The position numbers and the translations under genes are program-made. A stretch of DNA of 64,000 bases. Source: Patescibacteria group bacterium. GTDB lineage: Bacteria > Patescibacteriota > Minisyncoccia > Phycocordibacterales > CAIRYW01. The notes below the pieces were generated by a model. The model did not search any database, was not told the origin of the DNA, and worked only from the letters and a program-made list of their open reading frames with translations. Position 1 is the first letter of the stretch. Every line of letters starts with the position of its first letter. This document shows, piece after piece, positions 3,388-44,349 of the stretch. The DNA lies in the NCBI GenBank assembly GCA_040389185.1, contig JAZKAJ010000019.1:15523-79522 (forward strand), given 5' to 3'.

Positions 3388-4299
3388 CTATTTTGTATTA
3401 ATCAGAGGATATTTTTGTGGATCAATGTTTCGCGCAAAACAAGTTCTCTCCGCACCATGCTGCCAACTTTCATCACCATTCATTGCATACACGGCTTTTA
3501 CCTGATTATTATCTGATACAGTTTTGAAATCTGCACATACTTCAAAAGATAACTTTCCAGTTGTTCTGTATTCATACCCTTTCAAAGTCTCTGGATCAAG
3601 TGGAATCATATTGCCTGAAAGAGGATCCACCATATCACTCAAAACTCCTGGCAACACTCCCTTTTGTTGATAGTAATTCACAACCTGATATTGCAGATTG
3701 CTTAGATCATTCACTCTTTGTGAGTCAAAGTTAACATCGCGCTGATGCTTTGGCGAACCAATCATCACAAATCCAATAATAATTGAAAGTAGAACTATGA
3801 TAGATACTGTCGTTGCCCAGACCTTTGATCTCTTTGGATCTTCGTTGAAGTATCCTTTAAGATCCTTGAGGCAATATGTAAATATTGCGCCCGCGACCAC
3901 GAATACAGAAAGCACCTTGAGAAGAAATCCTGTTGTAAAGTCGAGTCCCGCAAGGAATGAATTAATAAGAACGATCGCATCACCTGCAATTGTTGCCCCA
4001 GTTAAAGCAAGTGTGAAATAAATAATCCACTTTCGAAGCTTACCTTCTTTGAATTCAATATTTTCTGTAATGAAATTTCGATATACTCGACTAAGCCAGA
4101 TAAAGAGCGGAAATACGACAATGAGTGTTGAGATGGAGAATCTAATGGCAGAAGTATCTGGGTAATAGTCTAATACTTGAGGAAATACATTGTTGATAAC
4201 AGAGAAAAGAAATACCAAGAAACTAATCGCAGAGATATAGAGTGTTGCGAAGATGCCGATTTGAATAAAGAAATTCTTTGGGGCTTGTGAGGACTGCAT
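3388..4299 (-). CDS. multi-pass membrane protein with a C-terminal soluble domain (DUF5671-like family common in Patescibacteria; assignment by recall)
   Basis: 303-aa ORF with four or more hydrophobic helices and then a hydrophilic tail. Confidence 0.6.
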   Translation of the reverse strand: MQSSQAPKNFFIQIGIFATLYISAISFLVFLFSVINNVFPQVLDYYPDTSAIRFSISTLIVVFPLFIWLSRVYRNFITENIEFKEGKLRKWIIYFTLALTGATIAGDAIVLINSFLAGLDFTTGFLLKVLSVFVVAGAIFTYCLKDLKGYFNEDPKRSKVWATTVSIIVLLSIIIGFVMIGSPKHQRDVNFDSQRVNDLSNLQYQVVNYYQQKGVLPGVLSDMVDPLSGNMIPLDPETLKGYEYRTTGKLSFEVCADFKTVSDNNQVKAVYAMNGDESWQHGAERTCFARNIDPQKYPLINTK

Positions 4300-11225: not shown

Positions 11226-12176
11226 ATGCAAAAAAATAAAAAACACCCCTCAATTTTAGTTTCCGGCTCACTAGTTTTTGATACCATCTTTGAACTTCAA
11301 AGCGCGATCAAGGATCAGGTCAGAATTGAAAATGGAATCGCAGGTAAACAAAACCTCATGTTCACCGCAAAAGAAAAGCAGGTTTATTTTGGGGGGACTG
11401 GAGGAAATATTTGTTATGGACTTGGACTTTTAAAGCAATCTTCATTTGCACTCTCAGCAGTTGGTAAAGACTTTGCAAGCTATAGTGCATGGCTTGAAAT
11501 GAGCAATGCTGAATTTCGAGGAAAGATAGATGAAGCAGGCTTTACAGCAACTTTTTTTGGAATGACAGATACTAGCAAAGATCAGCTAGGAATTTTTCAA
11601 GGAGGATCATACAACAAACATGTCGCTTCCCTATCGTTAACATCAAATTTTTCGAACAAAGAATTAGAACAAATCAAGTGTGCAATCTTTTCTCCAGGGA
11701 CTGCCAAAAGTATTGCAAAACAAATAGCGGAATTTAGAAAAATAAATTCCGAAGCTTTTACAATCTTTGATCCAGGACAGATGCTCGCAATCGATTTCAC
11801 ACCCGAACTTCTTATAAAGTCTCTCAAAAATTCAGACATACTTATATTGAACGATACGGAATTTTCATACCTCAAAAATTCTTTTGGAATTGATATAGAA
11901 AAAATATTTAGTCTCGGTGTGTCATACATTATTGAAACTAAAGGTGCGGACGGAAGTATCCTTTACGAAAAAGAAGACGAGAGTATCAGAGAAACAAAAA
12001 TAAAATCTCCCAAAGTAAAGAAAGTACTTGATCCAACAGGCGCCGGAGATGCATATCGCGCTGGAATTATGTATGGAATAGTAAACGATCTTGATATAAA
12101 AGAATCGATGACTCTCGCATCAAAACTTGGAGCAGAATGTGTAAAACATCGAGGCGGACAAACCTATTCAATATAA
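11226..12176 (+). CDS. PfkB-family nucleoside/sugar kinase (adenosine kinase-like; adjacent to ahcY)
   Basis: DPTGAGDAYRAGIMYG signature near the C-terminus; 316 aa. Confidence 0.75.
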   Translation: MQKNKKHPSILVSGSLVFDTIFELQSAIKDQVRIENGIAGKQNLMFTAKEKQVYFGGTGGNICYGLGLLKQSSFALSAVGKDFASYSAWLEMSNAEFRGKIDEAGFTATFFGMTDTSKDQLGIFQGGSYNKHVASLSLTSNFSNKELEQIKCAIFSPGTAKSIAKQIAEFRKINSEAFTIFDPGQMLAIDFTPELLIKSLKNSDILILNDTEFSYLKNSFGIDIEKIFSLGVSYIIETKGADGSILYEKEDESIRETKIKSPKVKKVLDPTGAGDAYRAGIMYGIVNDLDIKESMTLASKLGAECVKHRGGQTYSI

Positions 12177-12196
12177 TTATTTTTGGTAAATAAATC

Positions 12197-12232
12197 TTGT
12201 AATTATCCACACGGGTGTAGAAATAATTACAA
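12197..12232. promoter_or_regulatory. imperfect 36-bp palindrome ttgtaattat-ccacacgggtgtagaa-ataattacaa; terminator or operator
   Basis: Shares the half-site gtgtagaaa(t)aattaca with the 12735-12766 palindrome. Confidence 0.45.
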
Positions 12233-12252
12233 TATTTATTTATAATAGTATT

Positions 12253-12738
12253 ATGTCTCTTATTCTTGATATTCTAAATGAAATGTGGGATGCAACCTTA
12301 AACTACAAAGGTGTAACAGTGAATTTCTTTGGAGTACCATATTTTAAAACTAAGAAGCAGTCATCGCTTAGAGTCACTTTGTCCAGATTAGAAAAGAAGA
12401 AATTAATCCAGAAAAACAATAATGGCTGGGAAATACTGGAAGCTGGTAAAAAGTATCTGAACGAGCATAATAATCTTATTAAACTTCAATCCCCTTTTGA
12501 TAAATCATCTCCAAAAAATTTGATATTAATGTTTGATATTCCAGAGGATATGCGACAAATGAGAGACTGGTTAAGAGATCAACTAAAGATTTATGGATAT
12601 AAAATGGTGCAACAAAGTGTTTGGGTTGGGCCATCACCACTACCTCAAGAATTTAAAAAGATTATAAATGATTTAGGTATGAAGAAAAATATTAAGACAT
12701 TTAAATTAGCTTCACCCTACAAACAAAAAATAATGTAA
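12253..12738 (+). CDS. winged-helix plus Cas2/VapD-like domain protein (PaaX-like small regulator?)
   Basis: N-terminal wHTH (LRVTLSRLEKKKLIQKNNNGWEILEAGKKYL). The C-terminal LILMFDIPEDMRQMRDWLRDQLKIYGYKMVQQSVWVG matches the Cas2 pattern (V.V.YD....R.R..L...L...G.RVQ.SVF). Confidence 0.5.
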   Translation: MSLILDILNEMWDATLNYKGVTVNFFGVPYFKTKKQSSLRVTLSRLEKKKLIQKNNNGWEILEAGKKYLNEHNNLIKLQSPFDKSSPKNLILMFDIPEDMRQMRDWLRDQLKIYGYKMVQQSVWVGPSPLPQEFKKIINDLGMKKNIKTFKLASPYKQKIM

Positions 12739-12766
12739 TTTTCTACACGGCCGTGTAGAAAATTAC
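12735..12766. terminator. perfect 32-bp palindrome gtaattttctacacgg/ccgtgtagaaaattac followed by a T-rich run
   Basis: Overlaps the stop codon of 12253..12738. Confidence 0.55.
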
Positions 12767-12788
12767 ATTATTTTATTTATTGCTATAG

Positions 12789-13247
12789 CTAGATTATTTT
12801 AATAAGTGCAAGAGCGGCTTCGATGCCTTTATTTGTTGCACCACTTGAACGAATTTTCGCCTGTTCAAGATTGTTTACAGTAAGAATTGCATTTGTGATT
12901 GGAAGATCGTGCTTCAACATCACATCCATAATTCCTCGAGTTGATTCGTTTGAGATCTGGTAGTAATGGTCTGTATCTCCTTTGATGACGCATCCGATTG
13001 CGATGATACCTTTGTATTTTTTAGTTTTGGCCAATCTTTGACAGAGAAGTGGTATTTCAAATGCACCAGGCACATTCACAATTACGATGTTTGCTTCTTT
13101 TGTTCCATGAAATTTTAACTCTTCAATCGCACCATCTCGCATTGGAAATGTGATGTCACTGTTGTATTCAGACACAACAATTGCAATTTTTACTTTCGAT
13201 AAATCTTTAGCTTTATTCATCCCCTTTTTTTGCTCTCCTCGTTGCAT
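12789..13247 (-). CDS. ribH: 6,7-dimethyl-8-ribityllumazine synthase
   Basis: KIAIVVSEYNSDIT...GAFEIP...IAIGCVIKGDTDHY motifs. Confidence 0.85.
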   Translation of the reverse strand: MQRGEQKKGMNKAKDLSKVKIAIVVSEYNSDITFPMRDGAIEELKFHGTKEANIVIVNVPGAFEIPLLCQRLAKTKKYKGIIAIGCVIKGDTDHYYQISNESTRGIMDVMLKHDLPITNAILTVNNLEQAKIRSSGATNKGIEAALALIKII

Positions 13248-14251: not shown

Positions 14252-14791
14252 TTATTTTTTAATACTATTTATTTCTTTCATTAAATGCTCGAGTGATTTC
14301 TGAATACTTTCAACCGTTGCCTTGATTTCTTTATCTCTCTTTTCTTCAACAGTATCCCCTTCTTCAATATCATCAACATCCTCTTGGATTTCGTCGATAT
14401 CTTCTTGAATCTCATCCACGTCTGTTTGAATTTCTCCCACATCAGTCTGGATTTCATCAATGTCCTCTTGAATTTCATCAATGTCCTCTCCGACTTTTAA
14501 GAGATTTTCTGTATTTCTGTTGACTGTAAGCTGAATAAGAATCGCAAGATAGATTGCTTCAAGAGATACTACCGTTGTAAGAAAAAGAAGCATATGGTCT
14601 ATCTCACCAAATATCCACCCGAAAAGAAAGCAGACAATAAAAAATATTGTGTGAAATATTATTGACGCCGGTGAGCCAATCCATTTGGTCACCCGGAGTG
14701 ATAGAGCTTCAAATACAGACTCCGGTTTTGCCTTCTGTTCATTTGGAGTATGTTTGTGACGAGGTTTTGACATTTCCCTATAATACCACAA
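14252..14791 (-). CDS. DUF1003-like membrane protein with an acidic heptad-repeat C-terminal region
   Basis: Two TM helices, then (E/T)D(I/V)DEIQ repeated about six times. Confidence 0.55.
   Translation of the reverse strand: MWYYREMSKPRHKHTPNEQKAKPESVFEALSLRVTKWIGSPASIIFHTIFFIVCFLFGWIFGEIDHMLLFLTTVVSLEAIYLAILIQLTVNRNTENLLKVGEDIDEIQEDIDEIQTDVGEIQTDVDEIQEDIDEIQEDVDDIEEGDTVEEKRDKEIKATVESIQKSLEHLMKEINSIKK
14358..14497. repeat. 21-bp tandem repeat (about 6.5 copies) inside the CDS, encoding EDIDEIQ-type heptads
   Basis: Periodic ttgaat(c/t)tcatc(c/a)a(c/t)gtc units visible in the sequence. Confidence 0.7.
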
Positions 14792-43957: not shown

Positions 43958-44227
43958 GATATTAGAAGTTTGGATTTGAACTGACAGACAATAATCCTTA
44001 GCAAACCTAAGAGATTGATTACAGCCTTTCTCTCAAATCCAATCCAACTTACCTTTTAAAGAACTTTCTCATTCATTCAAAGAAATAACATATTTTATGC
44101 AAGTAGTCAATTTATATACTTTATAATTTTGTGGTCACAAATATTTTTCCTGACGGAAAAATTTCGCGACCCCGCCTCGCGGTTTTTGCCTTTCGGAGTA
44201 CCTCAAACAAAAACATCGCTGTGACTT

Positions 44228-44279
44228 CCACATAAATACAAAAACTCCCCAACTAAGGGGAGTTTTTGTATTTATGTGG
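44228..44279 (-). terminator. 23-bp perfect hairpin immediately 3' of tRNA-Ala (ccacataaatacaaaaactcccc / ggggagtttttgtatttatgtgg)
   Basis: Read directly. Overlaps the last 3 nt of the tRNA. Confidence 0.7.
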
Positions 44280-44349
44280 ACCCTACCAGATTCGAACTGG
44301 TGACCTCCTCATTGCAAATGAGGCGCTCTACCAACTAAGCTAAGGGCCC
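44277..44349 (-). tRNA. tRNA-Ala (anticodon UGC); G3:U70 present; CCA not encoded
   Basis: Cloverleaf folded by hand: GGGCCCT acceptor, anticodon loop TTTGCAA, T-arm CCAGTTCGAATCTGG; 73 nt. Confidence 0.85.

Follow-up and report, generated by a model that had tools for sequence, protein, structure and literature searches.

A stretch of 64,000 nucleotides from a Patescibacteria group bacterium (contig JAZKAJ010000019.1, positions 15,523 to 79,522; hereafter the window) carries a gene for a 161-residue protein that is bracketed by two long palindromes of related sequence. The gene lies between housekeeping genes: the S-adenosylhomocysteine (AdoHcy) hydrolase gene ahcY and a gene for a PfkB-family kinase precede it, and ribH, which is convergent with it, follows, together with ribE and a flavokinase gene. 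In the databases the protein is known under several names. The identical protein is called 'CRISPR-associated endonuclease Cas2' at NCBI, after the clustered regularly interspaced short palindromic repeats (CRISPR), and its relatives are labelled Cas2, PaaX or 'putative regulator' by NCBI and the Joint Genome Institute (JGI). The gene, its protein and its palindromes are described here in the window and in related loci, the latter being numbered with the prefix L, and the features are collected in Table 1.

Table 1. Position of the features discussed in the text; coordinates are those of the window unless a related locus is named, and a point marks features without strand.
Feature	Position	Strand	Remarks
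Gene for the 161-residue short PaaX-like protein	12253-12738	+	Winged helix and Cas2-like domain; NCBI label 'CRISPR-associated endonuclease Cas2'
N-terminal region, residues 1-75	12253-12477	+	Helix 1, NYKGxxVNxFGxP hairpin, putative recognition helix (residues 36-48), wing (52-61), helix (63-73)
Cas2-like / PaaX_M domain, residues 88-153	12514-12711	+	Beta-alpha-beta-beta-alpha-beta; Asp95 ends strand 1; QxSVWxGPSPLP motif
Promoter-like site	12218-12246	+	-35 TAGAAA (12218-12223), 17-nt spacer, -10 TATAAT (12241-12246), 6 nt to ATG; best match of the scan, 10/12
Upstream imperfect 56-bp palindrome, proposed operator	12187-12242	.	11 nt past the pfkB stop; centre at about 12214, about 39 nt before the ATG
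Downstream perfect 48-bp palindrome, proposed second binding site and bidirectional intrinsic terminator	12727-12774	.	
PfkB-family kinase gene	11226-12176	+	Upstream neighbour of the 161-residue gene; JGI names homologues adenosine kinase
ribH	12789-13247	-	Convergent with the 161-residue gene
Short-subfamily members	L086:2501-2896, L087:2501-2878, L088:2501-2887, L185:601-987, L186:601-993		Two are convergent with dprA
Examples of in-frame orphan palindromes	L113:5397-6422, L149:2881-4611, L141:2691-3830, L094:3115-4218		About 16 further metagenome loci

A preliminary description, made from the sequence without database searches, had assigned to this reading frame a winged helix-turn-helix at the N-terminal end and a C-terminal ferredoxin-like domain of the Cas2/VapD type. 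The open reading frame (ORF) exists as described and contains exactly the C-terminal segment that had been quoted, and both domain assignments are borne out. The best family match in Pfam is PaaX_M (PF20803, the 'PaaX central Cas2-like domain'), which covers residues 91-153 with an E-value of 3.3e-16 and 59.6 bits against a cut-off of 24. The two Cas2 models, CRISPR_Cas2 (PF09827; 24.7 bits, cut-off 23.8) and TIGR01573 (29.9 bits, cut-off 24.5), are passed narrowly and match residues 90-143 only, and it is because of these narrow passes that the protein bears the Cas2 label at NCBI. The PaaX equivalog TIGR02277 aligns residues 36-143 with model positions 34-140, at 24.6 bits against a cut-off of 264.55, and no match to the PaaX_C domain was found in the protein, which ends at residue 161. 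The N-terminal region gave weak matches to HTH_45, CggR_N, MksE and S19e, with all Pfam winged-helix models below their cut-offs. An AlphaFold2 model (mean predicted local distance difference test score 85) shows a helix-hairpin-helix-wing-helix arrangement followed by a beta-alpha-beta-beta-alpha-beta domain, and its top Foldseek matches are the VapD protein HP0315 (3ui3; probability 0.99, E-value 0.024), the E. coli PaaX structure 8a39 (probability 0.97) and many Cas2 proteins, with the PaaX-like Rv0674 structure 3kfw also among the matches. The E-values of these matches are weak (0.02-0.1) and the match list is coherent. The Pfam comparison that the preliminary description had recommended returned a strong PaaX_M match and a CRISPR_Cas2 match just over its cut-off, and Foldseek returned the fold of VapD.

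Sequence searches against the PDB were less informative, a single-sequence search giving noise only and a profile search weak matches to Cas2 and S19e. A profile alignment with type II-A Cas2 sets 'LLVMFDIP...IMIQKSVW' of the family opposite 'MILMFDMP...IMHQFSVY', so that Asp95, the acidic residue after the first strand to which attention had already been drawn, stands at the position of the strand-1 Asp of Cas2; it is conserved in at least 90% of family members. No HUH, transposase or recombinase domain was found in the protein, the winged helix and PaaX_M/Cas2 being the only domains detected. By these sequence matches its nearest family is PaaX and not Cas2 proper. The Cas2-like domain of PaaX itself serves in dimerisation. 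A search of all ORFs of the window, by tblastn and by profile, gave no second paralogue.

The two flanking palindromes are both real and both longer than they had first appeared. The upstream one had been placed at 12197-12232, which is the core of a longer imperfect palindrome with 20-nt outer arms that are 95% complementary and an imperfect inner core, CACAC-GG-GTGT(AG). The perfect palindrome reported over the stop codon at 12735-12766 is part of a longer perfect one, made up of 24+24 nt with zero spacer, with an A-run on its left and a T-run on its right; the stop codon (12736-12738) falls within it, and 14 nt separate its end from the stop of the convergent ribH. The likeness of the two flanks, also pointed out in the preliminary description, amounts to 76% identity over 49 nt. 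Their best ungapped 36-mer match is 27/36, a value reached by none of 500 shuffles (mean 19.8, maximum 26). As RNA, the downstream palindrome folds at -26.1 and -26.7 kcal/mol on its two strands (z -9.4 and -8.6); for the upstream palindrome the value is -15.7 kcal/mol (z = -3). The downstream palindrome scores as terminator-like on both strands and lies 0-14 nt from two convergent stop codons; it is thus predicted to be a bidirectional intrinsic terminator, and the upstream palindrome may likewise terminate the transcription of pfkB. A search for further copies, which the preliminary description had advised, found no third copy anywhere in the window, not even with 12 mismatches allowed in 36, and the other hairpins of the window are G+C-tipped terminators unrelated to the palindromes. 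For this window, a genome-wide terminator motif is ruled out on these two grounds.

The upstream palindrome also coincides with the best promoter match, its right arm containing the -35 hexamer. The TATAAT-N6-ATG arrangement predicts a transcription start that would leave the mRNA of the 161-residue gene leaderless. This arrangement is not peculiar to the window. In a sample of 73 non-redundant related loci, 55 genes have a -10-like hexamer whose end lies 6-8 nt ahead of the ATG (57 if gaps up to 9 nt are admitted) and a Shine-Dalgarno-like motif is found in none, from which leaderless mRNAs would be expected in the family. In 22 of 41 loci the upstream palindrome is centred 43-47 nt ahead of the ATG, and in the orthologue group of the window 36-39 nt ahead of it (L003 being counted by hand); at this distance the conserved TTTGT of the right arm falls at the expected -35 position. 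Many of the upstream palindromes separate genes that diverge, a setting that would leave a terminator without function. As a separate observation, a -10-like hexamer precedes the first ATG by 4-9 nt in 35% of the neighbouring genes of the 73 loci (in the flanks of L007-L084), and 7% of them show a Shine-Dalgarno-like motif, with start codons naively assigned; leaderless expression may be common in these Paceibacteria.

Homologues of about 160 residues are abundant in the Paceibacteria (Nomura-, Zambryski-, Taylor- and Campbellbacteria). A word-indexed search gave 98 matches, a scan of reference genomes 377 loci, and an exhaustive search 4330 clusters (50% identity, E <= 1e-3); the best 150 matches of the exhaustive search are mostly 150-185 residues long, which points to a family of two-domain proteins. 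The genes occupy at least eight conserved positions among housekeeping genes, at which they are vertically inherited and stable, and the neighbours include RNase H/ComEC and RecJ, ProRS and RseP, Tmk/ArgRS, PheS/T, IleRS and RecO, ValRS/TsaD, and a MurF-like protein and PBP2. In several of these groups it runs antisense to the genes on either side. Among the top 80 loci, 10 assemblies carry two or three paralogues whose palindromes differ, each paralogue having a variant of its own. Viral contigs yielded no relatives, and a phage origin was accordingly set aside.

Palindromes are a regular companion of these genes. In the 73 loci the density of strong palindromes is 4.4 per kb at the ends of the gene against 0.17 per kb elsewhere, a 26-fold enrichment, and a weight matrix built from the family sites and scanned over about 480 kb gave 49 upstream matches, 48 downstream matches and two others, so that 97 of 99 stand at gene ends; the two orphans were met in about 440 kb of flanks of genome loci, under a sampling that is centred on the genes. 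Read towards the centre, the consensus half-site is A-rich...ACAAA(T/C)TCTGC(G/C)A, and the core ACAAAnTCTGC-4 nt-GCAGAnTTTGT is common to paralogues with only about 45% protein identity. The length is even in 79 of 80 sites, which places the centre between two bases, and the central tetranucleotide is self-complementary (GATC, CATG, GGCC) in 43 of 79 sites against about 6% by chance. A preference for G-T over A-C among the arm mismatches was sought as a test for an RNA hairpin and was absent (23 versus 25 in upstream sites, 19 versus 21 in downstream sites); the mismatches thus give no hint that an RNA hairpin has been selected on just one strand. At one locus (L067, 3464-3588, at a contig end) the downstream palindrome seems to be extended to arms of 53 nt, most likely as a fold-back artefact of assembly. 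A short subfamily of 125-131 residues is without the recognition helix and the wing and keeps the NYKGxxVNxFGxP hairpin, the Cas2-like domain, a TATAAT-N6/7-ATG promoter and both palindromes. The idea that short proteins go with short palindromes, the outer half-sites being reserved for the winged helix, seemed true for L086 and L087 and failed for L088, L185 and L186.

The two palindromes of a locus resemble each other more than they resemble those of other loci. For the best 24-mer match between the upstream and the downstream copy, the median is 20/24 when both come from one locus and 16/24 when they come from different loci, and the variable outer arms, outside the shared core, match at 5.7 of 8 positions within a locus against 2.9 of 8 between loci (p = 6e-19). 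The two closest relatives of the window show how such pairs change. In L001, the protein of which is 86% identical, the upstream palindrome is the same as in the window and changes in the downstream arms compensate each other; L003 (63% identity) has a different, again paired, core, TTGTCACGACCGTGACAA, common to its two palindromes. Both relatives thus keep the two sites, with sequences that have changed in parallel. Mutual information between protein and DNA strongly couples R45, in the putative recognition helix, with half-site base -12 (z = 9) and E98 with base -2, signals that are confounded by phylogeny and serve as a hint only. The conserved NYKG hairpin may read the GC-NNNN-GC centre and the variable helix the variable arms, a division for which the phylogeny-confounded covariation of Arg45 with base -12 is the sole support. 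As a separate observation on the rate of change, PfkB is 83% identical between the window and a Taylorbacteria relative, versus 63% for the short PaaX-like protein of the same genome pair, and the cassette gene evolves much faster than its neighbours.

The junction between pfkB and ribH provides a comparison of loci with and without the gene. The order ahcY-pfkB-gene, convergent with ribH-ribE-flavokinase, is conserved together with both palindromes in L001 and L003. PfkB homologues at 48-57% identity keep the neighbourhood of YceG-AhcY-PfkB and ribH-ribE-flavokinase, with a junction that differs. In L183 and L184, pfkB and ribH are convergent and overlap, and cassette and palindrome are absent; the absence from this site, which the preliminary description had proposed to look for in sister genomes, is thus found in two more distant relatives. 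L182 has a G+C-rich, structured-looking spacer of 388 bp at the junction (3434-3820), and L188 a spacer of about 495 bp (2470-2964) with an unrelated 153-residue ORF that has no family match; neither spacer matches Rfam, and the two are not alignable with each other. In L187 (2528-3010, minus strand), with a PfkB of 65% identity, a member of the family stands at the same junction in the opposite orientation. That gene is bracketed by a matched pair of palindromes, GGTAACATT..GCACCTGC..AATGTTACC, with GCACCTGC as the core of the pair, and has the promoter TACAAT-N6-ATG. Its protein is about equally distant from the group of the window and from other groups, so that an inversion and an independent insertion cannot be told apart; in either case palindrome, gene and palindrome behave as a unit. 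The cassette suggested by the preliminary description is therefore upheld in part, by its absence in L183 and L184 and its opposite orientation in L187. A recently inserted mobile cassette is unsupported, since the synteny of ahcY, pfkB, the gene and ribH is kept down to 63% protein identity; for older events at the junction, whether gain, loss or inversion, the comparison of these loci does give support.

Palindromes of the same type are also found away from the gene. These orphans were sought in metagenome contigs by a scan centred on the pattern, with the one common core CAAAnTCTGCCATGGCAGAnTTTG. The exact pattern occurs at 87 sites, of which only 28 adjoin a family gene, and scoring by the weight matrix gave 48 gene-linked and 71 orphan sites. 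Intergenic orphans are placed at the 3' ends of genes (14 in the +|+ arrangement, 9 in -|-, 5 convergent, 0 divergent), often with A/T runs. About 20 others lie in frame inside intact genes for MiaA, ArgRS, PGK and RVT_1 reverse transcriptase and add ..(D/A)TNSAMAEFV(S/A).. to the protein; they are perfect palindromes of 24-38 bp with the core ACAAACTCTGCCATGGCAGAGTTTGT. In MiaA the orphan recurs at one and the same position in at least 12 contigs; its outer arms differ from contig to contig and remain complementary. Where an orphan and a family gene are on one contig (L105, L149, L040), the orphan shares the outer arms of that gene. The sites appear to amount to a handful of extra copies per genome and not to an expansion on the scale of repetitive extragenic palindromic (REP) sequences. 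The possibility, named in the preliminary description, that the palindromes are a common terminator motif unrelated to the gene is touched by the orphans of related lineages, but it does not agree with the concentration at gene ends found in the gene-centred sampling.

Among known systems, PaaX (E. coli W, Pseudomonas; PDB 8A39, and the PaaX-like structures 3L09 and 3KFW) is the closest; it has an N-terminal winged helix, for which the present protein has a probable counterpart, and then PF20803, the Cas2-like domain that the two share. A dimer, PaaX hinders RNA polymerase at Px, its own promoter, and so represses it, and its operator consists of inverted repeats, TGATTC-N27-GAATCA, that span about 39 bp (PMC9493321). 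This span is similar to that of the 34-48-bp palindromes of the present family, and a palindrome over the own promoter would fit an autoregulation of the PaaX kind. PaaX differs in being phenylacetyl-coenzyme A (CoA)-responsive through its ligand domain PaaX_C; the 161-residue protein is half the size, and because PaaX_C is absent it probably has no CoA-thioester inducer. Unlike PaaX, the family has several paralogues per genome, continuous palindromes at both gene ends and, as predicted here, leaderless mRNA. No paa genes were seen in any context, the neighbours in the window being the AdoHcy hydrolase, PfkB-family kinase, ribH, ribE and flavokinase genes. Cas2, especially of type II-A, and the VapD toxins share with the protein the ferredoxin-like fold, the Asp that ends strand 1 and a Q-x-S-V-(F/W/Y) strand motif. 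Cas2 is a stand-alone protein of about 90-110 residues, whereas the present protein is fused to a winged helix, occurs without Cas1 or an array and is closer in sequence to PaaX_M. VapD has the partner VapX, whereas no small partner gene stands in or beside the cassette. In the literature on PaaX and Cas2, on Cas2-like domains with winged helices and on palindromes of Patescibacteria, no description of this arrangement was found; the protein family is known as automatic annotation only, and neither the paired-palindrome cassette, nor its presence, absence or inversion, nor the in-frame orphans were found described.

The domains, the palindromes and their co-variation, the promoter geometry and the variable state of the junction, all of them observed directly, are best brought together if the protein is a short PaaX-type repressor that binds the palindromes flanking its own gene, a reading to which a probability of about 0.5 is given. 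The protein would be a DNA-binding one, composed of a winged helix and a Cas2-like dimerisation module, without the ligand domain of PaaX and with no link to CRISPR. Its gene would be transcribed without a leader from the TATAAT-N6-ATG promoter, the -35 of which lies within the right arm of the upstream palindrome, and the dimer would bind both cognate palindromes. At the upstream site it would block its own promoter as PaaX does at Px; this autorepression is proposed because PaaX represses its own promoter and because the upstream palindrome covers the -35 hexamer. The downstream site would double as bidirectional intrinsic terminator and second binding site, the bound dimer serving as a roadblock or as a looping partner of the promoter site. 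Palindrome, gene and palindrome would then make up a discrete cassette that has come to occupy many sites in the genomes of Paceibacteria. The preliminary description had left open a self-regulated cassette, a mobile toxin-like module and a PaaX-type regulator; the first and the last, joined in one, fit best, given the palindrome over the -35 and the co-variation from locus to locus, but the protein is not a full PaaX, having no ligand domain.

Several observations weigh against this repressor. The link between protein and DNA is drawn from position and co-variation only, and no regulated target other than the gene itself was identified. Orphans at 3' ends and inside genes, with none in divergent promoter regions, do not make a classical operator regulon, nor would a simple autoregulator predict them, and they keep alive a reading on the lines of REP sequences and their associated tyrosine transposases (RAYTs) or of Rickettsia palindromic elements (RPEs). 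The outer arms vary freely between loci and yet stay self-complementary, even at the one orthologous position inside MiaA, and such compensated variation would be more typical of selection for pairing, or of correction of a hairpin by template switching, than of a fixed protein contact. The short subfamily keeps its palindromes, so that the winged helix is not their sole reader, if it is a reader at all. The orthologue group of the window itself has a divergent core with a longer centre, (C/T)ACG(G/A)CCGT(G/A), which the weight matrix does not score.

The orphans lead to a rather unlikely alternative, in which the palindromes are DNA elements that propagate or recombine by themselves and the winged-helix Cas2-like protein is their enzyme or partner, recognising the hairpin or duplex and cutting it with the Cas2-like domain so that palindromes spread and the cassette inserts, inverts or is excised. 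As with RAYT genes and their REPINs, the gene is flanked by its own class of palindrome, with one variant per paralogue, at stable and vertically inherited positions, and extra copies occur at gene 3' ends. The excess of sites without a nearby gene in the metagenome scan (71 against 48), the arms shared by orphans and genes of one contig, and the three states of the junction, absent in L183 and L184, forward in the window, L001 and L003, and inverted in L187, point the same way, as does the conservation of Asp95 at the position of the Cas2 aspartate. The roughly 20 insertions in intact genes of relatives recall RPEs, which are likewise inserted in frame. On the other hand, RAYTs are HUH/Y1 transposases with hundreds of palindrome copies, whereas no HUH, transposase or recombinase domain was found here and the copies are few, namely two in the 64-kb window and two orphans in the flanks of the genome loci; the intragenic copies stand at the same position in all contigs, which speaks for a few old events and no ongoing spread. 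The Cas2-like domain of PaaX serves dimerisation, and no relative was found on viral contigs. In its most far-reaching form, which is doubtful, the short winged-helix Cas2-like proteins of Paceibacteria would be dedicated partners of an undescribed family of palindromic elements, nicking or recombining them through the strand-1 Asp as a non-HUH analogue of REP/RAYT. Were this true, the palindromes would seed new sites at gene 3' ends and in frame in loops of MiaA, ArgRS and PGK, and a free-living relative of the Cas2 lineage would act on palindromic repeats.

It is also unlikely that the palindromes are terminators or insulators and nothing else, shielding a small and often antisense-embedded gene, with their likeness due to duplication or gene conversion and the protein acting elsewhere. 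Both palindromes stand just past stop codons (that of pfkB, and those of the gene itself and ribH) and have A/T runs and good folding, and the long stem of the downstream element close to two stops resembles the bidirectional intrinsic terminators between convergent genes. The 3'-end orphans with none between divergent genes, the antisense position of the gene in many synteny groups, the palindromes of the short subfamily and the compensatory variation of the arms agree with such a role. Ordinary terminators differ, in that the downstream element, a perfect 48-bp dyad, is paired right through its centre, shares its sequence with the promoter element and is of a type conserved across the protein family; those in the window and in relatives have unrelated sequences. 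A hairpin alone needs no core conserved across paralogues of about 45% identity, and the self-complementary centres, the even length in 79 of 80 sites, the lack of wobble bias, and upstream sites at a fixed distance to the ATG, many of them in divergent intergenic regions, are not expected of it; nor does it explain why one gene family carries palindromes at eight or more unrelated positions. Very unlikely is a self-limiting toxin, a one-gene addiction or stress module in which the Cas2/VapD-like domain would be an active RNase or DNase and the winged helix would repress its own synthesis. In its favour are VapD HP0315 as the best structural match, a strand-1 Asp and a QxSVW motif conserved as they are in Cas2, the seemingly tight control of a leaderless promoter under a palindrome, and an evolution of the gene faster than that of its neighbours; against this, no antitoxin-like partner gene occurs in any context, the genes are stable, multi-copy and vertically inherited among the housekeeping genes of very small genomes, and nuclease activity is not known from PaaX_M, to which the protein is closer. 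A genuine CRISPR Cas2, as a solitary adaptation module, or a canonical phenylacetyl-CoA-responsive PaaX of a paa operon is hardly credible. The passing of the trusted cut-offs of CRISPR_Cas2 and TIGR01573 and the NCBI and JGI labels of Cas2 or PaaX speak for one or the other. No CRISPR-like direct repeats were found in the window and none of 29 other ORFs that were tested matches a Cas model, as the preliminary description had held; the inspected called-gene contexts of relatives contain no array or cas gene, the neighbours at the 73 loci being housekeeping genes, and an orphan Cas2 of a CRISPR system is ruled out by this lack of array and cas gene. The fusion to a DNA-binding domain, a TIGR02277 score of 24.6 bits against 264.6, and the absence of PaaX_C and of paa neighbours complete the case, and as far as sequence context allows both identities are already refuted.

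Two further features of the window lie apart from the cassette. The N-terminal half of a 179-residue ORF (14252-14791, minus strand) is hydrophobic; the ORF also contains an acidic tandem motif, DIDEIQ(E/T)DV.., in about five copies, and its position beside the flavokinase gene is kept in L003. At 44227-44280 there is a perfect inverted repeat of 24+24 nt, terminator-like and with a GGGGAG tip, which abuts, with a 4-nt overlap, a tRNA gene (44277-44349, minus strand), the only one found in the window.

For the annotation of these genomes, a family of 4330 clusters, members of which some sources automatically name Cas2 in genomes without CRISPR, implies that counts of CRISPR components in Patescibacteria are inflated. 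These bacteria have few transcription factors. If the protein is the autoregulator proposed here, a multi-copy, self-contained regulator that combines leaderless promoter, operator and terminator within about 600 bp would belong to the small number of their regulatory modules that are recognisable from the sequence itself. Since one type of palindrome is found at the promoter, at the terminator, at the 3' ends of other genes and in frame in essential genes, and since the cassette may be absent or inverted at a conserved junction, the origin and maintenance of palindromic elements become directly testable in this family, which may also inform the question of the roles that the PaaX/Cas2/VapD fold had before CRISPR or apart from it.

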